From Escherichia phage Mt1B1_P17: a stretch of 64,000 bases of DNA. The stretch lies in sequence record NC_052662.1; one strand, given 5' to 3'. Both the position numbers and the translations under genes were made by a program. How positions within the stretch are numbered: the stretch's first letter is position 1; the number at the start of each line of letters is the position of its first letter. Shown here in pieces: positions 1-14,391 of the stretch. A model generated the notes under the pieces. It did not search any database. It was not told where the DNA came from and saw only the letters and a program-made list of their open reading frames with translations.

Positions 1-51
1 AACGCGAATTTTCGGGCCGTCAGGTCCACGCAGCGACAATTCCCAAATATC

Positions 52-255
52 ATGCGAATGAGAATAATTATCATTCGTATTCAATGACTTATGCAAGGCT
101 CATGCCAACGTAGCGACAAGGTGGGCCACTTGATTATAAATCACACAAACACTTATTTATCAATAGGTTGGCAACTTCATCATATGACGGAACAATGTCA
201 ACTAATCCCGCTCATGACAAGCAGACTATTATTCATATGAGAATGATTATTATTT
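52..255. repeat. two Fur-box-like imperfect palindromes (ATGCGAATGAGAATAATTATCATTCGT at 52..77; ATGAGAATGATTATTATTT at 237..255) in AT-rich non-coding DNA
   Basis: Read directly; near match to the 7-1-7 Fur-box pattern TGATAATnATTATCA; same motif family recurs at 13293..13407. Confidence 0.4.
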
Positions 256-564
256 AAACGTTTATTAACATAAAAACCAGAATAAATCAAGAATTTTCTG
301 ATTTTATTTACGTTTAAGAGAAGATGCTCAACATATCGCTACGCGATAGTATTCGCCCCCAAAAGTATTGACTTTTATTCTATTATGTGCACACTATGCA
401 ACCTGTCGCTATTCGCTCATGTTGCTACGTGCAATTATTCATCTTGCTAATGATTTCATATTGTAATTATTACAATGATTATTGTTATTGCGCTAATGTT
501 ATGATCTTGGTAATTACATATAATGCTAATAATAAGCCAGCGCAATAAGTGTAAGCGTCATTAC

Positions 565-583
565 GCTTGCAATTATTGCAAGC
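565..583. repeat. perfect palindrome GCTTGCAAT-T-ATTGCAAGC
   Basis: 9-bp arms read directly; adjacent second inverted repeat TAAGCGT/ACGCTTA at 552..568. Confidence 0.5.
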
Positions 584-1200
584 TACGCAGTAACAAGAAA
601 TAACCATCACCGATGGTTATGATTGTTGGGGTGTAGTTGGCTTATTATTAGCTCGCTATGTGTCCGGCATAGCGTGCTAATGATGATCCTGGGAATGATT
701 CGTTTTGTAATGATTTCATTCAGTCACTATTATGGCAATAGTTATTATTTTAATGGTTTCGTTTGTTATTGTTCGTTAGTTGGTTGTTTTGTCGTGTTAT
801 CGTTATCTTGCTTAGTATTCATCATGGTTTGATTGTTTCTTGTTATCAATCATCTTGCTATTATTCCTTTTATTATGATTAGTTTGCTTATTGTTTTAGG
901 TTGTTGGTTAGTTAGTTGTTGCGAACTGTTATCAACATTATAGTTATGCGCTTATATTGCATATATAATCATGTATAGATGATAATGGTTATCATTGCAC
1001 TAGAAAGGAGGTAAAAGGGTGTTTTTGATGGTTTGTTGTTGGTTGTTGATCGATTTTAACCGCTATAAATGGCTCTCTAACAGCCTGTTACCCTGGGAGG
1101 TATGGTTATTCGTTTAATGGTTGATTAGCTCGATACCGCGATTTATTCAATTTTGTTCTGTGTCGGTTTTTCATAGGCGAAAGCTATCAACATTGTTCGG

Positions 1201-1228
1201 GCAAAAAGAAAGGGCGCTTGGTGCGCCC
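1201..1228 (-). terminator. intrinsic terminator hairpin GGGCGC-TTGGT-GCGCCC (copy 1 of 3)
   Basis: Stem-loop with T-rich flanks just downstream of the stop of CDS 1245..1664; identical hairpin at 1776..1794 and 7207..7225. Confidence 0.5.
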
Positions 1229-1244
1229 CTTGTTTTGTTGTCAA

Positions 1245-1664
1245 TTATAACGCTTCATAGATTGAGTAGATCCGGTTTGCCAGGTCATTACGAAAGCGGA
1301 ATTTTTCATCACGTTTGATCATCAGATCCTTAAAACCGCATTCTTTCAGTGCTTCATTAACTTTATGGCGGCAAACGTTCATATTATCCTGCGCGTCACC
1401 AATAAACTTATTGCTGTGATGCATTGCTTTGATCTCTTCCTCTAATACCAGGGCAACTACACGGATCGGATCAAGCTGATATGCGGTAACATCCATGCGG
1501 CATTGTAAACGGCTTTTAACATCGTTTACCGGATATACTGCAACCTCTTCCCCGTCAACGTTCACGATAACCAATTTACCATCGATTTCGAAGCCTTTGG
1601 CGGCGCTACCGTGACAAAAAGCGTTATCGAAGGAGTAAGCTGGATTATTTGATTTAATGTTCAT
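1245..1664 (-). CDS. hypothetical early protein (139 aa)
   Basis: ORF with own TTGACA-N17-TATATT promoter upstream (about 1720..1750). Confidence 0.5.
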   Translation of the reverse strand: MNIKSNNPAYSFDNAFCHGSAAKGFEIDGKLVIVNVDGEEVAVYPVNDVKSRLQCRMDVTAYQLDPIRVVALVLEEEIKAMHHSNKFIGDAQDNMNVCRHKVNEALKECGFKDLMIKRDEKFRFRNDLANRIYSIYEAL

Positions 1665-2502: not shown

Positions 2503-2562
2503 GGCGGGAAACATTCCCGCCCTACGTGATAAATGATAATGTAAGCGTGATCCGGTGTCAAT
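2503..2562 (-). promoter_or_regulatory. early promoter cassette: TTGACA-N17-TATCAT, then TAGGGCGGG and 5' stem-loop GGCGGGAA-ACA-TTCCCGCC
   Basis: Read on minus strand; -35 at 2557..2562, -10 at 2533..2538, hairpin 2503..2521. Confidence 0.6.
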
Positions 2563-2867
2563 AGGTAGGATTGTAAAGATTTGATAGTTTATCTCTTTGA
2601 TGTTTTGTTGTTTGATAGATGTTAGCTATCAATATATAGCGGGGTCGTCCGGTGATTATCTTCCCCTGCTTCCAGGTGCCGCCCGTTCAATAAGTATAAC
2701 AAAAAACAGGACAAAAACAAGCCCTGTTTATTTATCTTAAAACCAGTTGCCAACCGTTTCCAATAGGTCACTGACTACCAGGACAACATTGATCAGCACA
2801 TGTTCAACCATGAAGGGGATAAGCGCCAGCGTTGCTACTACGATCCCCATTGTGATGATTACCTTTC

Positions 2868-3158
2868 TCATTGTTGGCGGTTTACGTAAGCTTTACCGTT
2901 TACGGTCATCGGTATGGCCTCAAGGTCTGGATCTTCCTTAAGGTCGCGTGCAAGCTCACCGCAGCGGATACCCTCGAATCCGTGGTATTCTGTCGTGCCG
3001 TCCTGGAAAGTTTTAGCGGCAAGGCATAGGCGATAATTAACGCCGATCCGGTTCACTGCGTTAATATCGGTTAACGTGATGGATTCTGGCAACTCTTTCG
3101 CCATTACAGGCGCGTTAATACCAACAACCAGGGCAACTACTGCGATCATCTTTTTCAT
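2868..3158 (-). CDS. secreted/periplasmic small protein (N-terminal signal peptide MKKMIAVVALVVGINAPVMA)
   Basis: ORF with hydrophobic signal-like N-terminus; 5' hairpin GGGGCGGTAACGCCCC and RBS upstream. Confidence 0.5.
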   Translation of the reverse strand: MKKMIAVVALVVGINAPVMAKELPESITLTDINAVNRIGVNYRLCLAAKTFQDGTTEYHGFEGIRCGELARDLKEDPDLEAIPMTVNGKAYVNRQQ

Positions 3159-3213
3159 GCTTTCTAGCCTCTTCCTATTGCGTTTAATGGGGCGTTACCG
3201 CCCCGCTTATGGT

Positions 3214-3450
3214 TTATTGATTGATGTTATAATGAAAATTATTTTCTTCAATAGCTTTTAAAATAAAAGCCGTGATCGCTTTCGTGTCTACTTGTTCGAA
3301 CGTATCGGAATAGCACCAATAATGATCATCCCCTACTTTCGGCGGGTAAACCTGGACAAGGAGATCGCCACCTGGTTGATCTATAAGCTCAACATGCAAG
3401 CCGGATGATTCAGCGGTTTTAACGGCGTTTAATACTGTTGCAATACTCAT
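3214..3450 (-). CDS. hypothetical early protein (78 aa)
   Basis: ORF; RBS; 5' hairpin GGGGCGGCAACGCCCC upstream. Confidence 0.45.
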   Translation of the reverse strand: MSIATVLNAVKTAESSGLHVELIDQPGGDLLVQVYPPKVGDDHYWCYSDTFEQVDTKAITAFILKAIEENNFHYNINQ

Positions 3451-3494
3451 AATCTTTCCCTTTCTGATGTGGGGCGTTGCCGCCCCTTTGTTGA

Positions 3495-3794
3495 TTAGAT
3501 CGCTGTTTCCAGTAGTTCGGCTAACGTCTTACCGCCTGATAGTTGGTCTAACGTTTGCTCTTCTGGCAAGAAATTAGCTGATATTAAACCGACTTGATTC
3601 CCTTTGTGCCAATTAGCTTGACGGATGATTCCATCCTTTAAGGATTTTACCGCCATTGTGCAACCGTCGCCAAATGATTCATTTTTATGATCCATCACTT
3701 CGTAAGCGCCCAGTTTGCTGCTGTTAGGCACCATTAACGCGAATACATCACCAACAACCAGTTTTTCTACGGTAACAATAGCGATAGTTTCCAT
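3495..3794 (-). CDS. hypothetical early protein (99 aa)
   Basis: ORF; RBS GAGGAAAG; cassette 3813..3869 upstream. Confidence 0.5.
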   Translation of the reverse strand: METIAIVTVEKLVVGDVFALMVPNSSKLGAYEVMDHKNESFGDGCTMAVKSLKDGIIRQANWHKGNQVGLISANFLPEEQTLDQLSGGKTLAELLETAI

Positions 3795-3812
3795 TTTACT
3801 TTCCTCATTATT

Positions 3813-3869
3813 GGCGGCACCATTGCCGCCCTACGTGGTAAATATTAGCACACTGGCGATCTGTGTCAA
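3813..3869 (-). promoter_or_regulatory. early promoter cassette: TTGACA-N16-TAATAT plus 5' stem-loop GGCGGCAATGGTGCCGCC
   Basis: -35 at 3864..3869, -10 at 3842..3847, hairpin 3813..3830 (minus-strand reading). Confidence 0.6.
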
Positions 3870-3875
3870 TACTTT

Positions 3876-4262
3876 TTATTCAATATAAATCAAATTATCT
3901 TCACCAATGTAAGCCGACACGTTCGGCATAAACTTAGCTGCATTGGTTAGGCGGTTCGCCGTGTTAGTGGTGTATATCTCAGGGCGATCCCAAAAGCCTA
4001 CGCCGTGACCGTTACGGGTAAAATGTAAATCATTCCCGATCTGGTTGGCTGTTGCGCCGTCGCTCATTGCCTCAGAGATAGCGGCAAGATTAGCATTAAT
4101 AAAGGCTGTTACATCCTGGGCGATCCGTTCGTCCGCGCTAGGAGAAAAATCATAATCGTCTAAGTTATCAATAAAATTACCTTCATGATCCCTTGCTGAT
4201 TCAGCAAAAATAAAGGCTTCTTTATAGCCGTTGATGATTTCAATAATGATTTCTGTTTTCAT
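3876..4262 (-). CDS. hypothetical early protein (128 aa)
   Basis: ORF; start overlaps stop of upstream gene. Confidence 0.5.
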   Translation of the reverse strand: MKTEIIIEIINGYKEAFIFAESARDHEGNFIDNLDDYDFSPSADERIAQDVTAFINANLAAISEAMSDGATANQIGNDLHFTRNGHGVGFWDRPEIYTTNTANRLTNAAKFMPNVSAYIGEDNLIYIE

Positions 4263-4483
4263 GCTGTACGCTCGACAATAATAATAGTTTGCGGGATCTC
4301 GTTTTCTACTACTAACAAGGCTTTTTTCTGTGTGATAGATATTTTAACACGTTGTAAAGTAGCGGTAAAATCTTTCATTTCATTATGCGCGGACTTCGTG
4401 CAATGCCAGATCTCAGGCTTACCAACTTGTAAGCCGCGTAAAAATTCCGTTTTGCCTGTTTTGTTCGTGATCATTTGTTTCAC
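4259..4483 (-). CDS. hypothetical early protein (74 aa)
   Basis: ORF in operon-like arrangement. Confidence 0.4.
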   Translation of the reverse strand: MKQMITNKTGKTEFLRGLQVGKPEIWHCTKSAHNEMKDFTATLQRVKISITQKKALLVVENEIPQTIIIVERTA

Positions 4484-4484
4484 C

Positions 4485-4589
4485 TTAACCGATACCGTGG
4501 GAAGATAGGATCATATTAGCCATAGTTGCAACTACTCCAACCGATAACGCTAGGCCAACCACTGCAACCGTGAAAATTTTCTCTAACAT
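4485..4589 (-). CDS. small hydrophobic (membrane) protein, about 35 aa
   Basis: Start moved to internal Met (MLEKIF...) downstream of the 5' hairpin; the track ORF 4485..4688 translates the hairpin. Confidence 0.35.
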   Translation of the reverse strand: MLEKIFTVAVVGLALSVGVVATMANMILSSHGIG

Positions 4590-4672
4590 GATTCTACCCT
4601 CATTAATGGGCGTTGCACCATTGCCCCGCCCTACGTAATACACTTTACTAGATAACAAATTATTGTCAAGCT

Positions 4673-4810
4673 TTATTTTACTTCCCAAACGGAAAATTCG
4701 CTGCCTGTTGGGATCATTTTTTTAATCTTGTTTGCTGCCGCTACCAGGTCAACGGCTTGTACTGTAATAATATAACCAATTGTCGAGGCTGTTGCGTTGA
4801 AAGTTTTCAT
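4673..4810 (-). CDS. small protein, about 45 aa (below track cut-off)
   Basis: ATG at 4810 with RBS AAAGGGCAA and 5' hairpin GGCGGGATTAATCCCGCC upstream. Confidence 0.4.
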   Translation of the reverse strand: MKTFNATASTIGYIITVQAVDLVAAANKIKKMIPTGSEFSVWEVK

Positions 4811-4854
4811 TATATTGCCCTTTAATACAGGCGGGATTAATCCCGCCTTGTTGA

Positions 4855-5025
4855 TTACTCTTCATTGTCGCCGTTATAGTATTCAATGCCGTTTTCATCG
4901 GTTACGGTGATGTTAACGCCACCGATAGCAACACGATCACGGGCAAACGTCATAGCTTCATTTAAATCTTCAGACCAAAAAATATTGTGACCTTTGCGCG
5001 ATACATAAAACATAGTCGGGATCAT
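4855..5025 (-). CDS. hypothetical early protein, about 56 aa
   Basis: Track ORF N-terminus (YHIGRRNGPP) is translated hairpin; start set to internal Met. Confidence 0.4.
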   Translation of the reverse strand: MIPTMFYVSRKGHNIFWSEDLNEAMTFARDRVAIGGVNITVTDENGIEYYNGDNEE

Positions 5026-5110
5026 GATTTGTTTCTCTTCTGTTATGAGCGGTGGACCATTCCGCCGCCCTATGTGGTAAACTTTACTACGTTGTTTGCG
5101 TGCTGTCAAA

Positions 5111-5395
5111 TTATTTTTTAATGTTTTGCCCTACAAAATTGATCACTTCCTTAAGCTGTCTCTCTGTCATGATCGTACCTGGTAACTCTTCTTTAATTTC
5201 TTCCGGTAAATAGATATTACCGCGCCAGGTTAACAAACAACCGTTTTGATCTTCGCAGATAGAATAAGAAAACATCCACTCGCAATCATTTTCAAGCTCC
5301 CAAAAACACAAAAAGTCTTCTTTCCCTAAGTTTTCAACGGTTAAACATAATCCGCGACGTGCTGCATAATTAGTTAGGCTTTTTGTAATTTTCAT
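5111..5395 (-). CDS. hypothetical early protein (94 aa)
   Basis: ORF; RBS; cassette 5418..5472 upstream. Confidence 0.5.
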   Translation of the reverse strand: MKITKSLTNYAARRGLCLTVENLGKEDFLCFWELENDCEWMFSYSICEDQNGCLLTWRGNIYLPEEIKEELPGTIMTERQLKEVINFVGQNIKK

Positions 5396-5417
5396 GATTT
5401 TTCTCTCTTCTTGTGAG

Positions 5418-5472
5418 CGGCACCATTGCCGCCCTACAAGATATATATTATCAGACTAGGCGGACTTGTCAA
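5418..5472 (-). promoter_or_regulatory. early promoter cassette: TTGACA-N16-TAATAT plus 5' stem-loop GCGGCAATGGTGCCGC
   Basis: -35 at 5467..5472, -10 at 5445..5450, hairpin 5418..5433. Confidence 0.6.
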
Positions 5473-5473
5473 A

Positions 5474-5584
5474 CTATTTTTTCTTTTTCTTTGCTTCCAA
5501 CCGTCTAAGGTTACGGCTTGACTTATTGCGCAAGGCGCTTAGATCGTCGTACCCTTTCCATGCTTGCATATCTTTCGGATTCAT
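5474..5584 (-). CDS. small basic protein, about 36 aa (MNPKDMQAWKG...KKKKK)
   Basis: Internal Met with strong RBS AAGGGGGAT; weak call. Confidence 0.3.
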   Translation of the reverse strand: MNPKDMQAWKGYDDLSALRNKSSRNLRRLEAKKKKK

Positions 5585-5594
5585 GTTATCCCCC

Positions 5595-5873
5595 TTAACG
5601 ATTATAAACATTATGGATGGCTTCAAAGGCAAGATGACCATAAGCCGCCAAATCGGGATTGATCCAAGCGTTATCCAACATCGTTTCAAGGACTGTGGAA
5701 TCATCGTATAAAGCATCATAGAAATCTGCACGGATGATCGTTTCAATGTCGTCCGGTGTTAGTTTGTCGTTCAACTTGCACACTGTTTCAACGTCAACAC
5801 CAATTTTCCAATTTTGTAAATTAGTGGTTAACATTGTTTTCATTTCTTCGGTTGTTAATTTAACGATGGTCAT
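5595..5873 (-). CDS. hypothetical early protein (92 aa)
   Basis: ORF; RBS AGAAGAGAG; TTGACA promoter and 5' hairpin GGGGCGACAAGCGCCCC upstream. Confidence 0.5.
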   Translation of the reverse strand: MTIVKLTTEEMKTMLTTNLQNWKIGVDVETVCKLNDKLTPDDIETIIRADFYDALYDDSTVLETMLDNAWINPDLAAYGHLAFEAIHNVYNR

Positions 5874-5953
5874 GATTTTTTCTCTCTTCTGTTAGGCGGG
5901 GCGCTTGTCGCCCCTATGTGATACATCTTATCAGGTTGATTCAGCTTGTCAAA

Positions 5954-6115
5954 CTATTTGTTAGCCGGATTATATGCCAGGACCGCGCCACTTGCTTTCA
6001 CGCTTTCCGCTTCATAGTTGCGCAGATCGTTTTCTGTAAGATTGAGCGCGATCACTTCCTCGATCTCAACGCCAGCGGCAAGGGCGATCTCTTTGATAAT
6101 ATCTGTTGTTTTCAT
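5954..6115 (-). CDS. hypothetical small protein, about 53 aa
   Basis: Internal Met (MKTTDIIKEI) with RBS AAGGTG. Confidence 0.4.
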   Translation of the reverse strand: MKTTDIIKEIALAAGVEIEEVIALNLTENDLRNYEAESVKASGAVLAYNPANK

Positions 6116-6127
6116 GGTGTGCACCTT

Positions 6128-6247
6128 ATAAGATGATTGATAAGATAGTGACAACGAAAGCGATTATACTGATGGCAAATGTCATCTTTTTACCTTCGGA
6201 TACTGCCGGATTCTCTACCGTGTATTCTACTGTGTACTTGCTCATCG
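6128..6247 (-). CDS. small membrane protein, about 39 aa (C-terminal hydrophobic helix)
   Basis: ATG at 6247 with RBS; TTGCAA-N18-TATTTA promoter and 5' hairpin upstream. Confidence 0.4.
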
Positions 6248-6343
6248 TGTAATCCTCTCGTTTGCTTTGGGAACTATTCCCGCCGCCCTATGAATTAAAT
6301 ATACACTATCTCAAAATGATTGCAAGCCTTTTTCTAAATTATT

Positions 6344-6628
6344 TTATGCAGTAAACAAACCATCATTTACAACGGCGGCGATGATCTCCCGTGCCATTGA
6401 TTCAGGGAAAGGGGCGCTATAGTCCTGGCTTGTCTCATCGGTATCGGTGATCCAATGATAAGCTAACGAGTAAAAGCCTTTACTAACTGTTTTCAGTGAG
6501 ATGATGATCACTCGGTCAAGCTTATTGGTGAATGTTGCCGTTAATGTGTTACCCTCCTGCGTCATGTTGGACAAGTAAGCGAGATCATTAATCAGGGAAA
6601 ACATTAGCACGGTGTTAGCTTTACTCAT
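6344..6628 (-). CDS. hypothetical early protein, about 94 aa
   Basis: Start moved to internal Met (MSKANTV) after the hairpin; RBS GAGGATG. Confidence 0.5.
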   Translation of the reverse strand: MSKANTVLMFSLINDLAYLSNMTQEGNTLTATFTNKLDRVIIISLKTVSKGFYSLAYHWITDTDETSQDYSAPFPESMAREIIAAVVNDGLFTA

Positions 6629-6699
6629 GATTGCATCCTCAAAGGGGCGCGGCACCATTGCCGCCCTACACGATAACTATAACACAATGTAAAACAGGA

Positions 6700-6906
6700 T
6701 CAACCTTTATTTTTCCACGGTGTCAGCTTGTTAATCATTGGTGATAAATAGCGTTTACCAACGTAAAACAGTACGCCAACTGATGCAACGGCGGCGACCT
6801 CATGCAAGGAGGAAGGACGCGCGGTGTCATAGTAGGTACCAATAATAGCAATAGCGGCTACTGCGGCAATGTCTGTAATAATTTTTTCTTGTTTTGTTGT
6901 GATCAT
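6700..6906 (-). CDS. small membrane protein (68 aa)
   Basis: Hydrophobic stretches; RBS; 5' hairpin GGCGGGGAATAGTTCCCCACC upstream. Confidence 0.45.
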   Translation of the reverse strand: MITTKQEKIITDIAAVAAIAIIGTYYDTARPSSLHEVAAVASVGVLFYVGKRYLSPMINKLTPWKNKG

Positions 6907-6991
6907 AATATTTACCTTTTTGTATGGTGGGGAACTATTCCCCGCCTGATGTAATACAGTTTAACAGGTCCGGTTATGGTGTCAACCACTT

Positions 6992-7177
6992 TTAAAGATA
7001 TTTTATGCTAATGACGTTTTCAGGTTTTACCTTGTTATGATGTGCATCAACATAGATCAAACCATCGTCAGAAAAGCCCAGGATCACACCCTGCGCGATA
7101 AAACCATACGCATCACGGTAACGCACGGCTATTTTTAATGTTGCGTTATAGGCTGTTTTAAGCTCGCTTAAAGTCAT
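6992..7177 (-). CDS. hypothetical early protein (61 aa)
   Basis: ORF; RBS GAGGATAAACA. Confidence 0.45.
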   Translation of the reverse strand: MTLSELKTAYNATLKIAVRYRDAYGFIAQGVILGFSDDGLIYVDAHHNKVKPENVISIKYL

Positions 7178-7206
7178 CTTTGTTTATCCTCTACATATAA
7201 AAAGAA

Positions 7207-7225
7207 AGGGCGCTTGGTGCGCCCT
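7207..7225 (-). terminator. terminator hairpin copy 3 (AGGGCGCTTGGTGCGCCCT)
   Basis: Identical to 1776..1794; T-tract on minus strand. Confidence 0.45.
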
Positions 7226-7233
7226 TGTTATGT

Positions 7234-7380
7234 TAATCCTCTAAATCCATCCAATTATATTTGTCACTCTTCCCGCGCTTTGTTTTATTGCGCTTGTCGC
7301 CTTTGCGGATCACTTCCTCGTTCCAGGCCTTGCGGATCTTGGAAGATTGAATTTTTTCTGCGCGATTAGATGTATTCATT
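7234..7380 (-). CDS. small basic protein, about 48 aa (K/R-rich)
   Basis: ATG at 7380; RBS GAGGAAAC; TTGACA-N17-TAAATT promoter and 5' hairpin upstream. Confidence 0.4.
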
Positions 7381-7458
7381 TTGTTTCCTCTTCATATGAG
7401 CGGCACCATTGCCGCTATATTGTTAATTTAAACTGTTTTGTAAAATTGTCAAGGTTTA

Positions 7459-7812
7459 TCATTCATAAGAGCAAGCAAGGATCACGCCTGCAATATAAAG
7501 CCAATAATTTTCCCTTTCTCGTTGGATTTTATCATCGCTGCTATTCTCTTTAATGTATCCCCAGGATGTTAACAAACGATCAATTTCCCAATATTCGAAA
7601 GCTATATTAATATCTGATGGCAAGCCTTGTAACCATGATGCAAGTGCTTTAACAATACTATAATTAAAACGTGATTGATTATCAGGGTACCAGTACTCGG
7701 AATTAAAACGGCGCATCAATTCCGCGATCTTCTCTTTTTCGGTTGTAATACCATAATCATTAAAATCGATAGCGGCAAGGATGTACTCTTTAATTGCATT
7801 TTGTGCTTTCAT
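7459..7812 (-). CDS. hypothetical early protein (117 aa)
   Basis: ORF; RBS; cassette 7831..7887 upstream. Confidence 0.5.
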   Translation of the reverse strand: MKAQNAIKEYILAAIDFNDYGITTEKEKIAELMRRFNSEYWYPDNQSRFNYSIVKALASWLQGLPSDINIAFEYWEIDRLLTSWGYIKENSSDDKIQRERENYWLYIAGVILACSYE

Positions 7813-7830
7813 GGTCTTTCTCTCTTTTTA

Positions 7831-7887
7831 GCGGGAACTATTCCCGCCCTACGTGTAACAGTTTACTGAAAATTAAATCCGTGTCAA
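7831..7887 (-). promoter_or_regulatory. early promoter cassette: TTGACA-N16-TAAACT plus 5' stem-loop GCGGGAATAGTTCCCGC
   Basis: -35 at 7882..7887, -10 at 7860..7865, hairpin 7831..7847. Confidence 0.6.
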
Positions 7888-7890
7888 GCT

Positions 7891-8112
7891 TTATTTTGTT
7901 ACTACCATTTGGTACCCTGTTTCAATGTTAGTAAATACTGTTATCCCGTCCTGGCGTTCACTCATTAGCATACAAGGCGCTAACATCCTTTCTACTGCCT
8001 TGCACTCATTGTAAACGGCGGTTATGTCTCCTGCGGCCTTGTCTTCTGTGGTGAATGTATCGTTTATGTAAACTTGACCAGCGACAACGGCGACAATAGC
8101 GAAAGTGATCAT
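7891..8112 (-). CDS. hypothetical protein (73 aa), hydrophobic N-terminus
   Basis: ORF with RBS. Confidence 0.4.
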   Translation of the reverse strand: MITFAIVAVVAGQVYINDTFTTEDKAAGDITAVYNECKAVERMLAPCMLMSERQDGITVFTNIETGYQMVVTK

Positions 8113-8185
8113 GATGTCTTTCTCTTTATGTGTTTCTATTAGTTGATATTACAGCAATTCGCAGATTAGTTTTTAGCAATTCGTG

Positions 8186-8404
8186 CTATTTACTCATAAC
8201 AGTATCGAAAACAAATTTTTCTTTGTTGTCAAAGCTCACGTATCCGATTCGACCACGCAAGCCGCAAGTAGTGCCGTATTCGTAACCGTCAAGACCTTTA
8301 ACCTTCCAATCCACGCCCATTAAAACCGCATTATATTTCTGACCAACTACAAACGCGCCACCAGTTGATTCAATGCAAACAACTTTAATTTTACGGATTG
8401 CCAT
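8186..8404 (-). CDS. hypothetical early protein (72 aa)
   Basis: ORF; 5' hairpin TATAGCGCC-TTACAAT-GGGCGCTATA upstream. Confidence 0.45.
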   Translation of the reverse strand: MAIRKIKVVCIESTGGAFVVGQKYNAVLMGVDWKVKGLDGYEYGTTCGLRGRIGYVSFDNKEKFVFDTVMSK

Positions 8405-8485
8405 TTTCTTTCTCTCTTTCTGGTGATTGGTTTCTCTTCTCTATAGCGCCCATTGTAAGGCGCTATAACGAAAAGTCAACGATTA

Positions 8486-8650
8486 TTTTTTAAGGCTTAA
8501 AGTACCTAACTTGTCAGCATGACGTAGACCAGGGAAGATCCATTTTCCTGATTCATCTTTTACAGGGGCTTTAAACGTAGCGCCCAGGTTGGCGGCGTTA
8601 ACTTTACGGGCAACGTTGCGAGCGGCTTCACGGGTAGCGAAAGTGATCAT
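8486..8650 (-). CDS. small protein, about 54 aa (below track cut-off)
   Basis: ATG at 8650; RBS GAAGAGGAAAAC; TTGCAA-N16-TAAACT promoter and 5' hairpin upstream. Confidence 0.4.
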
Positions 8651-8741
8651 GGTGTTTTCCTCTTCTCTTTGTTAGGCGGTGGACCATTCCGCCGCCTTGA
8701 TGTAATACAGTTTACTTTATTTTTGCAGTATTGCAAGCGTT

Positions 8742-8954
8742 TTATGAAATAATCGTCAAAGTAAAATTGTAATCACCTGATTGGTACAATACTTTATCAC
8801 CGAAAGTTCCAACACGTTTAACATTGCAATATATACCCATAACACTTTTTACATCTTTGATATTCTTCACGCCTGTAATATCTTTATTAAAATGATCGTG
8901 ATCAGAAAATAAAACTTGACTTGCATTTTTTAACAGTGTACGGATATTAGCCAT
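8742..8954 (-). CDS. hypothetical early protein (70 aa)
   Basis: ORF; TTGACA-N16-TAAACT promoter and 5' hairpin upstream. Confidence 0.45.
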   Translation of the reverse strand: MANIRTLLKNASQVLFSDHDHFNKDITGVKNIKDVKSVMGIYCNVKRVGTFGDKVLYQSGDYNFTLTIIS

Positions 8955-9044
8955 CGTGATAATCTCTCTTCTGTTGTGAGCGGCACTATTGCCGCCCTAC
9001 GTAATACAGTTTACTCTTTTTCTTTCCCGTGTCAACAATCTTTT

Positions 9045-9272
9045 TCAGATTAATTCATCCAGGCATAACAGGCGATCAACGTTGAGATCTGTTAGGCTGA
9101 TGGTTGGCACCTGGTAGGATTCGATGTACTCGACGCTTGCATATTCCCCAAAATTAGCAACAGCCCACTTATTCAAGATCTCACATACATCATTAATCTT
9201 TTTGTTTGTTACAACTGCTACAACCTGGGAATAGCCAACGGTGCCGGATACGCGAACAATATTGATAGCCAT
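9045..9272 (-). CDS. hypothetical early protein (75 aa)
   Basis: ORF; promoter/hairpin cassette upstream. Confidence 0.45.
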   Translation of the reverse strand: MAINIVRVSGTVGYSQVVAVVTNKKINDVCEILNKWAVANFGEYASVEYIESYQVPTISLTDLNVDRLLCLDELI

Positions 9273-9363
9273 AATCTTTAATCTCTCTGTTGTGAGCGGG
9301 AAACCATTTCCCGCCTTATGTGATACATCTTACACTAATTTTAAACGTTGTCAACTGTTTTTA

Positions 9364-9603
9364 TTACATTCCAACCATCGCGGCGCGGATCGCTGTAGTG
9401 CTATACTTGAAACCGTCTGGAGTTTTATCTTGTCCAGTTTGTTCCAGGAATAACATCATATCACGGGCAGCATCATTACGATTAGTATTAGCGGCGATAA
9501 ATTCTTTCGCCAACCGATATAATGATTCGTCATTATTAATCCAAAGGCTTACATTCCAGTGAGTTTTATTTTTGTGACCTAAGAACATTTTTGATTTAGC
9601 CAT
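9364..9603 (-). CDS. hypothetical early protein (79 aa)
   Basis: ORF; promoter/hairpin cassette upstream. Confidence 0.45.
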   Translation of the reverse strand: MAKSKMFLGHKNKTHWNVSLWINNDESLYRLAKEFIAANTNRNDAARDMMLFLEQTGQDKTPDGFKYSTTAIRAAMVGM

Positions 9604-9692
9604 GATATTAATCTCTTTTTCAGTGAGGCGGGAAGTATTCCCGCTCTCTATGTAATACAGTTTACTCTTTTTATTCGTGCTGTCAATGCTTT

Positions 9693-10058
9693 TTATAAAT
9701 CTTTTTTACGTTTAACATCACTCGCATGACTGTATACAGTGATCCCATTGTCACGGCAAAAACGGGAAAGATACGCGCCGCGTGAAAACTCTTTACCTTC
9801 CATATTAATAACCTTGCTAAATTCTTCCAGGGCGACGGTATCAAAATGATCACCATAGCCATATTGAAACGGAACGTTAACCACCTCGATCAGTTTACCG
9901 CCGATCTCAACGTCAACCATTAAAGAAAAATATGTGTTACCGTAGGACTGTTGAAACCAGCGACGGGCGCTAATGTGCACCGCTTCAATGCTGGATAATT
10001 CAATTTTAGCCGTGTTAGCCAGGGTAGCATAAGCGGAAACATTGATATTAATAGCCAT
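9693..10058 (-). CDS. hypothetical early protein (121 aa)
   Basis: ORF; TTGACA-N17-CATAAT promoter and 5' hairpin upstream. Confidence 0.5.
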   Translation of the reverse strand: MAININVSAYATLANTAKIELSSIEAVHISARRWFQQSYGNTYFSLMVDVEIGGKLIEVVNVPFQYGYGDHFDTVALEEFSKVINMEGKEFSRGAYLSRFCRDNGITVYSHASDVKRKKDL

Positions 10059-10155
10059 GATGATAATCTCTCTTTTTGGTTAGTGGGAAGTATTCCCGAT
10101 AAAAGTTATTATGCTTATACTATCACTCATTGTCAATAGTATAAGACTAAAACTT

Positions 10156-10335
10156 TTAACGATAATCGTTATAGGCTTTATTGACCTGGCGAATGTAACA
10201 TTCGAAAGCAAGATCAATGTATTCGTATTCACGCACATAATCACCATAGGTCACTACATACATTTTTAAAGTTTCCTCATAAGCCAGGAGGATCGAATCT
10301 AAACCTATAATCTCAGTTTTTGCAATGATAGCCAT
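10156..10335 (-). CDS. small protein, about 59 aa (below track cut-off)
   Basis: ATG at 10335; RBS; TTGACA-N16-TATAGT promoter and hairpin GGCGGCAATGGTGCCGCC upstream. Confidence 0.4.
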   Translation of the reverse strand: MAIIAKTEIIGLDSILLAYEETLKMYVVTYGDYVREYEYIDLAFECYIRQVNKAYNDYR

Positions 10336-10418
10336 GATGTTAACCTTTTATTGTTGGCGGCACCATTGCCGCCCTACGTGATAAACTATACCAGAAGTTT
10401 AAACAGTGTCAACCGTTT

Positions 10419-10781
10419 TTATTCGTAAATTTTACCGCTTTCGGCCCATACCATAACGCGGCGCATACTATCCCAAGTGTTTTGATCCAGGTTTAAGCCG
10501 TGCAACTCTTCGGTACTTCCCAGACCAGGTACCGCTTTGTTGTAAGTCGCATATAAGCGCCCTTGATACTCATACACCAGAGTAAGATCCGTTTGAATCA
10601 TCTTTTTAAGCATAGCATTAAGCATCATATTAGCGGCATGTTGATCACGTTTTAGCGGTAACATATCAATAAGGGCGCGATAAGCTGAAACATGGATATC
10701 AACCGTTTCACGTGGTAAATTTTTCATATCATCGCGGAAAGATACCAGATTAAACATGATAGTATTGATTTGCTTGCTCAT
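10419..10781 (-). CDS. hypothetical early protein (120 aa)
   Basis: ORF; cassette 10803..10863 upstream. Confidence 0.5.
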   Translation of the reverse strand: MSKQINTIMFNLVSFRDDMKNLPRETVDIHVSAYRALIDMLPLKRDQHAANMMLNAMLKKMIQTDLTLVYEYQGRLYATYNKAVPGLGSTEELHGLNLDQNTWDSMRRVMVWAESGKIYE

Positions 10782-10802
10782 TGTGTTACCCTTTTTTGTT
10801 TT

Positions 10803-10863
10803 GGCGGGGAAGTATTCCGCCGCCCTATGTGATACATCTTATCAGATTAAAAAACGTTGTCAA
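10803..10863 (-). promoter_or_regulatory. early promoter cassette: TTGACA-N16-TAAGAT plus 5' stem-loop
   Basis: -35 at 10858..10863, -10 at 10836..10841, hairpin 10803..10824. Confidence 0.6.
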
Positions 10864-10871
10864 GAATATTT

Positions 10872-10967
10872 TTAGAAAATAATAGCCGCTACTACAACCC
10901 AAAATGGAACGGCTAGAATGATAGCGTTAATCGTTCCAACCGTCAAGCTATTTTCTTTATTAATCAT
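10872..10967 (-). CDS. very small membrane protein, about 31 aa
   Basis: ATG at 10967; RBS AAGAGGCTT; TTGACA-N17-TAATAT promoter and hairpin upstream; hydrophobic C-terminal half. Confidence 0.35.
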   Translation of the reverse strand: MINKENSLTVGTINAIILAVPFWVVVAAIIF

Positions 10968-11049
10968 TGTAAGCCTCTTGCATAATTTCACTATGAGCGG
11001 CACCATTGCCGCCCTACGTGGTAAATATTATGCCAGTGGCGGCGATATG

Positions 11050-12775: not shown

Positions 12776-13042
12776 ATGACAAATACTACATTACACCTTA
12801 TGCACTCATTGGGCTGGCAAGGCGGAACGGTGCACCAGGTAGCAAGCGCAACGGGCTTAAAGGTTGAAACAGTTCTCAACCTGGGCGATCATAAGGTGGA
12901 AGAGATAGATCATTTTGATACGTTCGCAAATGGTTATCTATGGGCTTGCAGTGGCGGCGGGGAAAGCAAGATACCACCAGGGGCGCGGGGCGATATGTAT
13001 TTTTGGTTAGGTGTCCTATCCTGGCAAGAAAACAAAAAATAA
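12776..13042 (+). CDS. hypothetical protein (88 aa), plus strand inside a minus-strand block
   Basis: ORF with weak RBS; GC-rich surroundings; uncertain. Confidence 0.3.
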   Translation: MTNTTLHLMHSLGWQGGTVHQVASATGLKVETVLNLGDHKVEEIDHFDTFANGYLWACSGGGESKIPPGARGDMYFWLGVLSWQENKK

Positions 13043-13044
13043 TC

Positions 13045-13073
13045 TTGACAAGCCCAGGGATCGGGCTTATACT
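13045..13073 (+). promoter_or_regulatory. near-consensus sigma70 promoter TTGACA-N17-TATACT with no downstream ORF
   Basis: -35 at 13045..13050, -10 at 13068..13073; followed by about 200 nt of GC-rich untranslated sequence. Confidence 0.5.
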
Positions 13074-13292
13074 GTTTTACATACAGAAGAGGAAGCGCCA
13101 CCCCACGGCGTAAAGGCGGGGCTAACATACCAGGGGGCACTGGTTGGAAGGTTGATCGCCGGTAGGCTGGGCGCTATATATTTGTAAAGAAATGTAAAGA
13201 TAAAATAATCACTTGCTTTCCTGGCTGGATCTGTTATTCTTATTACATGGCGAGGGGACACGGGAGCGCGAGACAAACACCGCCCCTGCGCG

Positions 13293-13407
13293 TCATTCTC
13301 TAAATGAGAATGATTATCATTTACTTTATTAAATAAGAATCAATCTCATTTATAAACTTAAATGCGAATCATTATCATTTGCATTTCCACATGAGAACTC
13401 TTCTCAT
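13293..13407. promoter_or_regulatory. cluster of four Fur-box-like imperfect palindromes
   Basis: ATGAGAATGATTATCATT (13304..13321), AGAATCAATCTCATT (13335..13350), ATGCGAATCATTATCATTTGCAT (13362..13384), ATGAGAA-CTC-TTCTCAT (13391..13407); read directly. Confidence 0.45.
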
Positions 13408-13427
13408 TCCCACCTGCATAAATTTTT

Positions 13428-13606
13428 GTAAACTTTAAATTTTGGTTTTGTACTTTCATTTTTGTAAAAGCAAAAAAACTTTAAATACTGTGGGCGCGCA
13501 AAATTTTTAAAATTTTCCTTGACTTTTGAGTTTTGTTTTGTATCTAACATTTTAAGATAATTTTCCTAAACTTTAAATTTTGGTTTTCAACTTTCACTTT
13601 TGTAAA
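13428..13606. repeat. two about 40-bp direct repeats (AAACTTTAAATTTTGGTTTTG/CAACTTTCA...TTTTGTAAA) in AT-rich intergenic DNA
   Basis: Copies at 13428..13468 and 13566..13606; extra AAACTTTAAAT-type and TTTGAGAT motifs nearby. Confidence 0.5.
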
Positions 13607-13857
13607 TTCTTAAAAAGTTTAAATAATTTGAGGAATTTTTGAGATAATAGGTAGTGGGAATTTGAGATAACCTTTAATCTTGTTGGTAAACCTTCAGGAA
13701 CCCACCTAGATCAAATCTTAGCAATGCAAACTGAAAAAGATAAGTGTTCGTATAGGACAAAATAATAGGCTCTCTACGGTGCTGTAGGAGCCTTATTTCT
13801 GTGCTACAAAGTGACGCCTTTGTTCTAAAAATGAAAAAAGTTAAAATATCACAAATA

Positions 13858-14391
13858 TCATCTTTGCGGTATTTTGTCTGGGAAAAGTATTTCTATCAGT
13901 TTGTTATGATATTTACCTAAAAGATTCTGTCCTTTCCAGGTGGCAGGGTTTAGCACCCCTGGTTCATACATCCCCATTCCAATTCCGTATACCTTATCGT
14001 AAGGACTTGCTTCAACAAATGTTTTGTATTGATATAGACGTAAATCGGCATACAAGTCTGGATTCTGTACATACTTCAAGCATAAACCTCGCATAACAAT
14101 ACGCTCACGATTCTCTTCCCATATTTTGTTATCGAAACCTGCTACTGCCCTACCCATACGTTTGTAATAAGCTTGTATCTTCTCATCTTCTCGTTTTAAG
14201 CTATGAGTCAGAATAGCTTGTGCGTTGTTGTGATCGTTAAAGAGCAAAGCTTTACGCCACATCATATATTGTTCTACACAGTTAAATGTTTCATTGTAAC
14301 CTGGTTCGGTTTCTGTAAAGGGTGCAATATACCAATTACTAAACACATCTTTATGTGAAAAGAAGAATACATATTCATCAGTTATTCTCAT
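13858..14391 (-). CDS. NADAR / YbiA-like (DUF1768-type) domain protein
   Basis: Motifs FFF...FSNWY, ...MMWRKALLFND, GRAVAGFD, LVEASPYD..YGIG match the NADAR family pattern from memory; not confirmed by search. Confidence 0.55.
   Translation of the reverse strand: MRITDEYVFFFSHKDVFSNWYIAPFTETEPGYNETFNCVEQYMMWRKALLFNDHNNAQAILTHSLKREDEKIQAYYKRMGRAVAGFDNKIWEENRERIVMRGLCLKYVQNPDLYADLRLYQYKTFVEASPYDKVYGIGMGMYEPGVLNPATWKGQNLLGKYHNKLIEILFPDKIPQR

Follow-up and report, generated by a model that had tools for sequence, protein, structure and literature searches.

The first 1,244 bp of the window, which is the whole 64,000-nucleotide stretch of DNA analyzed here, are best explained as the right-hand end of a phi92/phAPEC8-type (Stephanstirmvirinae) genome, and we put the probability of this reading as a whole at roughly 70%. 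The 64-kb sequence represents a Phapecoctavirus genome (99% to “phage B15” and 96% to phAPEC8) and is the reverse complement of the phi92 orientation, with the side of window base 1 corresponding to the right genome end of phi92. Homology indicates that positions 1–328 are one copy of a direct terminal repeat (DTR), which is shown as a repeat only in relatives, the second copy of this genome lying outside the window that covers 64 kb from one end. By the same kind of evidence, positions 329–1244 are a gene-free, cis-acting terminal region. It is bordered on one side by the DTR and on the other by the terminator that closes the last gene block, whose transcription runs toward the genome end.

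The DTR itself is already known for this subfamily, and a published passage describes DTRs as general in Stephanstirmvirinae (PMC12695924). A preliminary description of this DNA had offered four options for the region, namely a genome terminus, a packaging signal, a replication origin or a host-factor binding platform. The first of these is borne out by the records of relatives, as the physical ends on record for Schickermooser, BI-EHEC, phi92 and BME3 fall at window base 1, and their DTRs correspond to positions 1–328. BI-EHEC contains an exact 328-bp repeat with the same boundaries, and Schickermooser contains an exact 329-bp terminal repeat, given as 328 bp in the published passage on this phage (PMC6563267). 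In phi92 (FR775895.2), a DTR-R of 343 bp is annotated at the homologous place and aligns collinearly with the window. The BME3 record and the window begin on the same base, and the passage on its termini reports a DTR of 342 bp by PhageTerm (PMC12210895). The record of 10C3_SA_NWU begins at the inner DTR boundary.

Both boundaries of the repeat display the same motif. The outer junction, ..GTGCTT|AACGCGA.., is kept in 13 genomes from at least four lineages, the inner motif is located 328–352 bp from the outer site in 13 of 13 genomes, and GCTYARC occurs once in window positions 1–1300, at 326. The repeat ends are sequence-specific, in that the boundaries are fixed relative to TGCT|YAAC in the 13 genomes. 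From these record boundaries, some of which are possibly derived from coverage or assembly, we infer that TGCT|YAAC (window orientation; GTTR|AGCA in phage orientation) is a terminase cut site, the inner boundary being a candidate second site. Because the same motif is present at both repeat boundaries, the region probably contains a packaging signal, the second option of the preliminary description. The two copies are in direct orientation, which fits two double-strand cuts better than classic staggered nicks. No terminase gene was found in the 64-kb window.

The absence of a credible gene from the AT-rich first 1,120 bp, as claimed previously, holds up to position 1244, where the GC content is 35.7% versus 39.4% in the remaining window. 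The first real gene encodes a 139-aa protein (Table 1), for which no Pfam match was obtained. In circularly joined relatives the gap is larger, reaching 1.54 kb in phAPEC8 between phAPEC8_0018 and phAPEC8_0017, and the window start falls within this type of gap, exactly at the physical genome end. Where annotation was careful, as in phAPEC8, Schickermooser, phi92 and phiWec181, no gene has been placed in the gap. In addition, at least four lineages share one layout, in which the terminus motif is followed by two Fur-like boxes, the inner motif, a folded element, a C-poor tract, a further Fur-like box, a conserved block and the terminator. The palindromes, inverted repeats and T/A-rich tracts reported earlier are all present in the sequence. 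DNA curvature, for which a check had been proposed, received no support from helical phasing of AA/TT, which was not significant (maximum z of ~2.5 over 55 tests). No tRNA or tmRNA gene was detected in the window and no tandem repeat in positions 1–1400; Rfam gave nothing at the gathering score in the whole window and only chance-level matches (E ≥ 0.08) in 1–1400. In IMG/VR, a 15-mer scan returned almost solely chance matches, and a protein-based search returned only three loci.

Table 1. Coordinates of sequence features in the terminal region and of related features elsewhere in the window.
Feature	Position	Strand	Remarks
Outer DTR boundary	1..12	.	(..RRGTGCT|T)AACGCGAATTTT; TGCT half just beyond the window
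DTR, one copy	1..328	.	By homology to repeats of relatives; right end in phi92 orientation
Fur-box-like palindrome 1	59..73	.	TGAGAATAATTATCA; 19-mer at 54–72 matches 15/19 of the Fur consensus GATAATGATAATCATTATC
IHF-consensus match (putative)	158..170	+	TATCAATAGGTTG (WATCAANNNNTTR); mid-DTR
Fur-box-like palindrome 2	238..252	.	TGAGAATGATTATTA; fits the 7-1-7 form
Inner DTR boundary	318..334	.	GAGAAGATGCT|CAACAT; repeats the outer TGCT|YAAC motif
Variable AT-rich spacer	329..524	.	GCTAATRWT repeats 1 and 2 of 5 (446, 492)
GCTAATRWT repeats	446, 492, 525, 644(−), 676		Cluster conserved across genera
Folded element, six predicted helices	525..674	+	Covariation, folding z, single copy
Helices P1; P2; P3	525–539/638–652; 541–543/555–557; 565–572/576–583	+	
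Helices P4; P5; P6	584–588/631–635; 600–608/612–620; 654–661/667–674	+	
Perfect palindrome, 9-bp arms	565..583	.	GCTTGCAAT-T-ATTGCAAGC; forms helix P3
C-depleted, AT-rich unstructured tract	675..940	.	T-rich on the + strand
Fur-box-like palindrome 3	980..994	.	TGATAATGGTTATCA; overlaps −10-like GATAAT, with TTGCAT hexamer 18 nt upstream
Highly conserved block	1121..1149	.	TTGATTAGCTCGATACCGCGATTTATTCA; terminus-like motif ACCGCGATTTAT at 1135–1146; AACGCGATTTAT in other lineages
Intrinsic terminator	1209..1231	−	Closes the − strand gene block; annotated as such for phAPEC8 and Schickermooser
Last gene before the terminus	1245..1664	−	139 aa; phAPEC8_0017/phi92 gp248 ‘Gp30.8-like’; bounds the non-coding region
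Fur-like palindrome array (outside finding)	13303..13410	.	Four copies exactly 29 bp apart

Between the inner boundary and the last gene, positions 525–674 are the only strongly structured stretch in 1–1350, with a folding z of −10 on the + strand and −8 to −9 on the − strand; on the same 150-nt windows, z was −9.9 on the + strand versus −4.9 on the − strand. The predicted helices comprise 48 pairs over 24 sequences, 98.4% of the cells pair, 13 pairs are changed on both sides, and none of 500 shuffles equaled this result. Across the element, 70 G·T cells were counted versus 2 A·C cells, a wobble count somewhat biased by prediction on the + strand with G-U pairs allowed; the asymmetry says that, under this model, it is the + strand that would fold, as RNA or single-stranded DNA (ssDNA). 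The element is present in one copy per genome (covariance model R1, 171 bits), and a covariance-model search found no second copy in the window or in rV5-like contigs. The palindrome within it is indeed perfect, as described before, and its arms are kept in four lineages. It overlaps an alternative long hairpin (542–558/563–579) with 77% Watson–Crick and 10% G·T pairing, covariation at pair 547/574, and 39 G·T versus 0 A·C cells. A second structured region, at 1040–1125, was considered and rejected: small hairpins there showed some compensatory changes by eye, but its folding was no better than that of shuffled sequences (z of +0.5 and −1.5).

The Fur-box-like motifs previously placed at 52..77 and 237..255 are real, as 59–73 and 238–252 fit the 7-1-7 form, and a third copy is present at 980–994. 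Palindrome 1 is kept in phi92/BME3/inny, the Klebsiella phages and L081 despite diverged flanks; at the place of palindrome 2, phi92 carries TGATAATGATTATCA, a perfect 7-1-7 box; and palindrome 3 is kept in the phi92, Klebsiella and L081 lineages. Matches of 15/19 to the Fur consensus are found at 54–72, 981–999 and 13306. Over 64 kb, the palindrome has eight matches versus 2.1 ± 1.4 expected, seven of which are located in two non-coding regions. The array at 13.3 kb is also found in phi92, with 81–87% identical stretches in T5-like phages; further copies of the palindrome occur in rV5-like contigs and in the terminal-repeat Repeat Region 3 of one T5-like phage. The hexamers at palindrome 3 may constitute a promoter; sigma-70-like promoter sites were not enriched (11 versus 8.1 ± 3.0). 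Similarly, the IHF consensus shows no window-wide enrichment (six matches in 64 kb versus 6.75 expected), and the IHF-like site at 158 is notable only by its position and by retention of the consensus match in phi92, the Klebsiella phages and L081. The suggestion of a host-factor platform gains support at the motif level only, in that Fur-like and IHF-like motifs are kept across genera amid diverging repeat sequence.

In the AT-rich tract, positions 700–930 consist of 53% T and 10% C. The + strand of 675–940 is T-rich and C-depleted, and therefore the − strand is G-poor, with C exceeding G. C content is 10–11% here and 5–11% in the phi92, Klebsiella and L081 lineages, with a GC skew of +0.28 to +0.57; this composition is kept across lineages, whereas the sequence itself is not. 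The spacer on the other side of the folded element aligns poorly between genera.

Other readings of parts of this region have to be weighed against a genome end. A structured + strand non-coding RNA, transcribed from 525–674 and perhaps more of 329–1240 away from the terminus and convergent with the last gene block, could act in regulation, packaging or priming. The six covarying helices, the G·T excess in both the element and the alternative hairpin, and the stronger + strand folding are consistent with such an RNA, as are a perfect TATAAT at 519–524 and a terminator hairpin (1212–1228) with a + strand T-tract in Phapecoctavirus. However, that T-tract is missing in the phi92, Klebsiella and L081 lineages, a start after TATAAT would remove half of helix P1, no −35/−10 pair upstream is kept in all lineages, and neither a promoter scan nor inspection by eye yielded a convincing promoter for a + strand RNA. 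As the wobble count also has the bias mentioned above, the element has no Rfam family, and a literature search limited to Justusliebigvirus found no transcriptome for the phage group, we regard this RNA as rather unlikely. The same terminator enters a different proposal, in which 1231 down to ~675 is mainly a transcriptional insulator that combines the terminator with a Rho-utilization-like − strand tract against read-through into the terminus. The terminator and its − strand T-tract are kept in all lineages, the G-depletion of the − strand is kept although the sequence is not, and the − strand RNA of 675–940 is nearly structure-free (minimum free energy of only −3 to −7 kcal/mol per 150 nt). 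This RNA contains only 14–24% C, which is low for a classical rut site, and the proposal leaves the folded element, the Fur-like sites and the repeat unexplained; we judge it unlikely as the main function. Small proteins are very improbable products of the region, whether from GenBank-annotated ORFs, such as the 6–7 ‘hypothetical proteins’ of some automated annotations, or from the 32-aa ORF 1019..1117. The ORFs of at least 30 aa in 1–1244 differ in position, frame and strand between genera, and therefore none is conserved; likewise, a search of homologs for a conserved gene spanning the region found no ORF common across genera up to 1244. The statement in the preliminary description that ORFs here lack a ribosome-binding site fails for 1019..1117, in which a strong Shine–Dalgarno sequence (AGGAGG, 1006–1011) precedes the GTG start by 7 nt, yet the view that it is no credible gene stands: its start is lost within the genus (phiWec181) and in phi92, and it is therefore not a conserved gene. 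Moreover, tblastn similarities in the region coincide with blocks conserved at the nucleotide level.

For the palindromes, a tentative possibility is that host Fur binds them as operators, assisted architecturally by IHF, and that the genome end together with the 13.3-kb array acts as an iron-responsive switch of nearby promoters or as a Fur-titrating decoy. The consensus is matched at 15/19 positions and the relaxed 7-1-7 form at 14/14, four Stephanstirmvirinae lineages retain the sites amid diverged flanks, and box 3 overlaps a −10-like GATAAT. Sites of this kind also cluster in rV5-like contigs and T5-like Repeat Region 3, which favors a shared host protein over a phage-specific one. Against this, the promoter-like sites overlapped by boxes 1 and 2 are weak (9/12), the half-site frequently reads TGAGAAT instead of TGATAAT, other proteins can bind AT-rich palindromes, and no link of phAPEC8/phi92-type phages to Fur was found in the searched literature. 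Fur operators would be compatible with a genome end. A replication origin, in which the AT-rich tract would unwind, the GCTAAT repeats would act as iterons and the hairpins would provide a single-strand initiation (ssi) signal, seems decidedly improbable. Five GCTAATRWT repeats do lie within 240 bp (the motif has 13 matches in 64 kb versus 3.2 ± 1.8 expected, 5 of 13 within 446–684), the unstructured 675–940 tract has 70% AT, the strand specificity of folding recalls ssi signals, and an rV5-like contig (L010) carries three perfect TTATCCACA boxes in the equivalent gap. Nevertheless, GCTAAT also resembles the −10 region of the early promoters of the phage, GC skew tracks gene orientation and not the 1–1244 region, and a second repeat-rich gap at 13.0–13.9 kb is an equally good candidate. 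The origin is the weakest of the four options raised earlier. Consensus DnaA boxes are absent from 1–1244 and under-represented in the window (5 versus 10 expected). TTWTNCACA has no match in 1–1244, the sole near-match being TTATCAACA at 929–937 with one mismatch, and the promoter-associated ‘PHIRE’ motif of phAPEC8 has no copy in 1–1244.

Returning to the genome end as the preferred reading, we propose that infection produces concatemers in which adjoining genomes share one repeat copy, and that terminase would cut at TGCT|YAAC on either side of this copy, one cut giving the left end of one genome and the other the right end of the preceding genome. With one cut per side of a single copy, DNA synthesis would therefore be needed to duplicate the repeat, as it is in T7. 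T7-like replisome genes, encoding a Toprim+DnaB primase-helicase and a family A polymerase, are present in the window. Most tentatively, the folded element may be the best candidate for a recognition or priming structure in repeat processing, the Fur-like and IHF-like sites within the repeat may recruit host DNA-binding proteins to the end, and the terminator together with the unstructured tract in which C exceeds G may stop transcription entering the terminus. The palindrome and the folded element are located 197–350 bp from the inner boundary in four lineages, on the right-end side, and this position is the sole, tentative link of the element to packaging.

The cut-site motif, the folded element and the Fur-like sites appear to be undescribed in the searched literature. 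True ends and a cut-site motif allow all phAPEC8/phi92-type genomes to be oriented and annotated consistently; many of them belong to phage-therapy candidates, and their deposited records begin at arbitrary positions and list spurious small ORFs in the gap. Experiments on terminase and packaging in the group also gain a defined target in the motif, and 525–674, with its clear covariation support, is a good candidate for a previously undescribed cis-acting structure of RNA or ssDNA. If Fur does bind the Fur-like sites, lytic phages of several families would be seen to sense or manipulate the iron status of the host, and the T5 repeat region, long a puzzle, would gain a new reading open to testing. 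A broader and quite improbable conjecture is that unrelated virulent enterobacterial phages (phi92/phAPEC8-, rV5- and T5-like) carry strong host Fur operators at their ends plus one internal array, as an iron switch for first-entering DNA or a decoy derepressing iron uptake for iron-dependent phage enzymes, and that the strand-specific 150-nt element next to the repeat is a novel cofactor, RNA or ssDNA, in priming or in forming the ends.

Comparison with known systems starts with the DTRs of phi92, Schickermooser, BME3 and other Stephanstirmvirinae, which are homologous to the window repeat, share its boundaries and its position after gp248/phAPEC8_0017, and measure 328–343 bp. Records and papers on these DTRs state no more than the repeat and its length; the boundary motif, the internal conserved sites and the 900-bp flanking region are unannotated in the phAPEC8, Schickermooser and phi92 records and go unmentioned where three of the papers treat terminal repeats. 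In T7, the processing hairpin is reportedly on the right-end side of the repeat. The T7/T3 concatemer junction resembles the present one in its short repeat of a few hundred bp and the need for repeat duplication, in the encoded primase-helicase and family A polymerase, and in a palindrome on the right-end side; repeat duplication with a hairpin intermediate is described for T7 (PMC4281155, citing Chung and Hinkle, 1990 and Molineux, 2006). Unlike T7, the phage here is a ~150-kb myovirus without a phage RNA polymerase or sequence similarity to T7, the two putative cut sites carry one and the same directly repeated motif, and the folded element is a 150-nt multi-helix structure instead of a single inverted repeat. 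The + strand, whose folding is suggested by the G·T over A·C asymmetry, would not obviously be exposed in simple T7-style models.

IHF has a role at lambda cos. As in lambda cos, a consensus for a host bending protein lies within the (here putative) terminase substrate, although lambda has 12-nt cohesive ends in place of a DTR and the IHF site here is a consensus match only. The Escherichia coli Fur box (GATAATGATAATCATTATC; 7-1-7 form TGATAATnATTATCA; consensus from PMC3145626) is likewise palindromic, with 15/19 matches and the same half-site spacing as the sites here, and functional E. coli sites with 11–13/19 have been accepted (PMC3145626). The putative phage sites differ in their often TGAGAAT half-sites and in lying at the genome end of a virulent phage, where overlap with a promoter is not evident. 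A further parallel is the untranslated Repeat Region 3, or injection stop signal region, of T5-like phages (Davison, bioRxiv 10.1101/866236). T5 terminal repeats are ~10 kb, in contrast to the 328-bp DTR here, its Repeat Region 3 has paired DnaA boxes and DRD repeats that are absent here, and the two-step injection stop proposed for T5 has no known counterpart in the phAPEC8/phi92-type group. In both cases, however, a conserved, untranslated region rich in repeats and palindromes is positioned at the inner end of the terminal repeat, the AATGAGAATnATTATCATT element is common to the terminal-repeat region of the window and T5 Repeat Region 3, and the element AAATGAGAATnATTATCATTCGYATT is shared by T5 Repeat Region 3 and the window sites at 59 and 13363.

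The first 328 bases of the window are almost certainly one copy of the direct terminal repeat (DTR) of this genome (probability about 0.95), identified through the repeats of relatives, the window itself covering one genome end. The assignment follows from boundaries that match the repeats or record ends of these relatives. The Schickermooser record ends one base past window position 1 and has the same 329-bp sequence at its start and at its end, the published repeat length being 328 bp (PMC6563267). In BI-EHEC the terminal repeat is exact and 328 bp long, bounded at the equivalents of window positions 1 and 328, and the 10C3_SA_NWU record begins exactly on the inner boundary. In the sister genus, the homologous place in phi92 is annotated as a "right end direct terminal repeat" of 343 bp, and the BME3 record shares its first base with the window (both open with AACGCGA) and has a 342-bp repeat determined with PhageTerm (PMC12210895). 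Direct terminal repeats are stated to end Stephanstirmvirinae genomes in general (PMC12695924). Relative to the phi92 orientation, the window shows the right genome end as its reverse complement. The observation in the preliminary description is real and the first of its readings, a genome terminus, is correct: positions 1-328 match the relatives' repeats, and record ends coincide with position 1.

By megablast, window 1-1250 matched 71 phage records, nearly all Phapecoctavirus (phAPEC8-like, subfamily Stephanstirmvirinae), with identities of 99.1% to the unverified record "Campylobacter phage B15" and ~96% to phAPEC8. Host labels on near-identical genomes (this record, Pseudomonas phage PsgM04F and an Acinetobacter phage) look doubtful, since the genus comprises E. 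coli phages. The corresponding part of the phAPEC8 record, in which the two genome ends are joined, is a 1.54-kb gap with no annotated gene, flanked by the same-strand genes phAPEC8_0018 and phAPEC8_0017; the window starts ~285 bp inside this gap. The AT-rich composition described earlier is borne out by a GC content of 35.7% in 1-1244 versus 39.4% elsewhere in the window, and tract 700-930 is 53% T and 10% C. ORFs of at least 30 aa in the gap vary in position, frame and strand among Phapecoctavirus, Justusliebigvirus, Klebsiella phages and a fourth, metagenomic lineage (L081), and the sole tblastn similarities fall on blocks already conserved at the nucleotide level. No ORF is therefore conserved among the four lineages: the conserved gene that would have spoken against the preliminary description did not turn up, and the region can still be regarded as gene-free. 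The accompanying statement that the two track ORFs there lack a ribosome-binding site needs a small correction, as ORF 1019..1117 has a strong Shine-Dalgarno sequence; as a conserved gene this ORF was rejected, its start codon being absent in phiWec181 and phi92. The 6-7 small ORFs that several matching records place in the gap are spurious.

Coordinates of features in the window
Feature	Position	Strand	Remarks
Fur-like palindrome 1	59-73		TGAGAATAATTATCA; block kept between genera
IHF-consensus match	158-170		kept in all four lineages
Fur-like palindrome 2	238-252		TGAGAATGATTATTA; block kept between genera
Fur-like palindrome 3	980-994		TGATAATGGTTATCA
Near-invariant 29-bp block	1121-1149		contains terminus-like ACCGCGATTTAT
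Intrinsic terminator	1231..1209	-	follows the 139-aa ORF
First real gene	1245..1664	-	139-aa ORF
Hairpin motif GTAGGGCGGCAATGGTGCCG	3815, 5418, 6650, 8981, 10358, 10998 and others	-	
Perfect promoter TTGACA-N17-TATACT	~13046-13074	+	in gene-free region 13040-13860
GC-rich stretch	13078-13190		after the promoter; fold z -2.4
Four-copy Fur-like palindrome array	13303-13410		
Two ~45-bp direct repeats	~13428 and ~13567		

Comparison of 13 genomes from at least four lineages revealed an outer junction reading ..RRGTGCT/TAACGCGA.. and, 328-352 bp from it, an inner junction ..AGAAGnTGCT/CAACA.. (slash, boundary); GCTYARC occurs once in the first 1300 window bases, at position 326. The shared TGCT/YAAC (GTTR/AGCA in phage orientation) is probably the terminase cut site. 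Two cuts would be made there, one giving the left end and one the right end, and the single repeat copy of the concatemer would then have to be duplicated by synthesis. T7 faces the same repeat-duplication problem (PMC4281155), and the window also codes for a family A DNA polymerase and for a primase-helicase of the T7-like type. No terminase gene was found within the 64 kb. The central block 26694-54184 (+ strand), with a UvrD-type helicase, an anaerobic ribonucleotide reductase (NrdD), a Toprim+DnaB primase-helicase and the family A polymerase, represents a T7-like replisome gene set inside a 150-kb myovirus. In addition, L081 (positions 3427 and 3487, reverse-complement coordinates), Klebsiella phage KP2025 and L086 carry a second inner-boundary motif (GTGGCT/CAAC) 58-67 bp further in, so that their repeat could be ~400 bp long or have alternative ends.

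The repeat interior is mostly unalignable between genera, and few blocks are kept. Two Fur-box-like motifs had been described there; these and a third palindrome fit the 7-1-7 Fur box form, and 19-mers match GATAATGATAATCATTATC at 15/19 positions (54-72 and 981-999) or 14/19 (at 239), E. coli functional Fur sites with 11-13/19 matches being accepted (PMC3145626). A relaxed motif has 8 matches in 64 kb versus 2.1 ± 1.4 expected, three in the terminal gap and four, with exact 29-bp spacing, in the array at 13305-13406 of the second gene-free region. The same sites and a five-copy array are present in phi92, and the rV5-like contig L009 has four such palindromes within 135 bp of its own gap. In the T5-like phage VAH1 (MK373792.1 111959-113714), six Fur-box-like palindromes lie beside DnaA boxes in "Repeat Region 3", an untranslated stretch where the terminal repeat ends on its inner side, and the match of VAH1 site AAATGAGAATCATTATCATTCGTATTC to window site 1 extends past the palindrome. 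Davison's analysis of the T5 region stresses DnaA boxes, and Fur goes unmentioned (10.1101/866236). That phages from unrelated families with the same hosts have this motif in common suggests recognition by a host protein, with Fur the natural candidate; its predicted binding is put forward tentatively. The VAH1 palindromes include AATGAGAATGATTCTCATT and several AAATGAGAATCATT direct repeats. L009 and L010 (IMGVR_UViG_3300045988_159287), both rV5-sized (137-141 kb), encode a homologue of the 139-aa last gene (92-93% identity), flanked by a gap unrelated in sequence to the window, with non-coding DNA downstream of match 3501-3917; the L010 gap holds three perfect DnaA boxes (TTATCCACA).

The first 340 bp of the second large gene-free region, 13040-13860, recur at 70-85% conservation in 387 phage records, among them those of Vequintavirinae and of Cronobacter and Klebsiella phages. 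The region has no Rfam match and could be an ncRNA gene or a regulatory hub. The 20-nt motif GTAGGGCGGCAATGGTGCCG, annotated as "PHIRE promoter" in phAPEC8, occurs nine times (≤5 mismatches) in 2506-10998; where checked, copies lie in early-gene 5' leaders just downstream of host-type promoters (TTGACA..TGnTAATAT). Within the terminal gap, five GCTAATRWT repeats, resembling the -10 region TGnTAATAT of phage early promoters, cluster in 446-684 (13 matches in the window versus 3.2 expected). Tract 675-940 keeps its composition among lineages and not its sequence; C makes up 5-11% of its + strand, so that a - strand RNA would be G-poor, and it is predicted to be almost without structure, which is compatible with Rho loading behind the terminator or with a role as an unwinding element.

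The palindrome reported at 565..583, perfect in sequence with 9-bp arms, proved to be helix P3 of a larger structure, 525-674, the sole strongly structured stretch in 1-1350. RNAalifold on 24 distinct sequences from phage records, IMG/VR and metagenomes gave six helices with 48 pairs; as collection was anchored on the palindrome, the other helices are unbiased. Overall, 98.4% of cells pair and 13 pairs changed on both sides; 0/500 shuffles reached the observed pairing or covariation, and sliding partners by 1-3 columns lowers pairing to 26-49%. The long-range helix P1 (525-539/638-652), formed by two of the GCTAATRWT repeats, covaries at three positions (AAGCCA/TGGCTT, AACGCA/TGCGTT, AACACA/TGTGTT, ACCGCA/TGCGGT), as does P6, and hairpin P5 is fully rewritten in some lineages. 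Whether folded as RNA or as DNA, the window element scores z = -10 for the + strand and -8 to -9 for the - strand. Non-Watson-Crick cells are G.T rather than A.C (70 versus 2; 39 versus 0 in an alternative hairpin) while base composition is nearly symmetric, which argues that the + strand folds, as RNA or single-stranded DNA, with the caveat that prediction of the structure on that strand biases the wobble count somewhat. No conserved promoter for a + strand RNA was found, and a + strand T-tract accompanies the terminator in Phapecoctavirus only. With a covariance model, each genome yielded a single copy and the rV5-like contigs yielded none; Rfam gave no match. Justusliebigvirus phages and KP2025 carry an extra perfect 9-bp hairpin at the same insertion point (columns 87-108 of the element alignment, window 558/559), with unrelated sequences (ACAATATAC...GTATATTGT versus ATGATGTAT...ATACATCAT).

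Genome ends that combine a short DTR with cis-acting DNA beside it are of a known kind, and descriptions of the repeat already exist for relatives. The motif common to both boundaries, the covariation-supported element, and the Fur-like and IHF-like sites that rV5-like and T5-like phages share appear to be new, and all make directly testable predictions. The folded element is found on the right-end side of the repeat, at a distance of 200-350 bp. Chung, Nardone & Hinkle reportedly located the T7 processing hairpin, in 1990, on the right-end side of its repeat, that is, in the same relative position; on the basis of this likeness in position, we favor, as a possibility, a role of the element in packaging or end formation.
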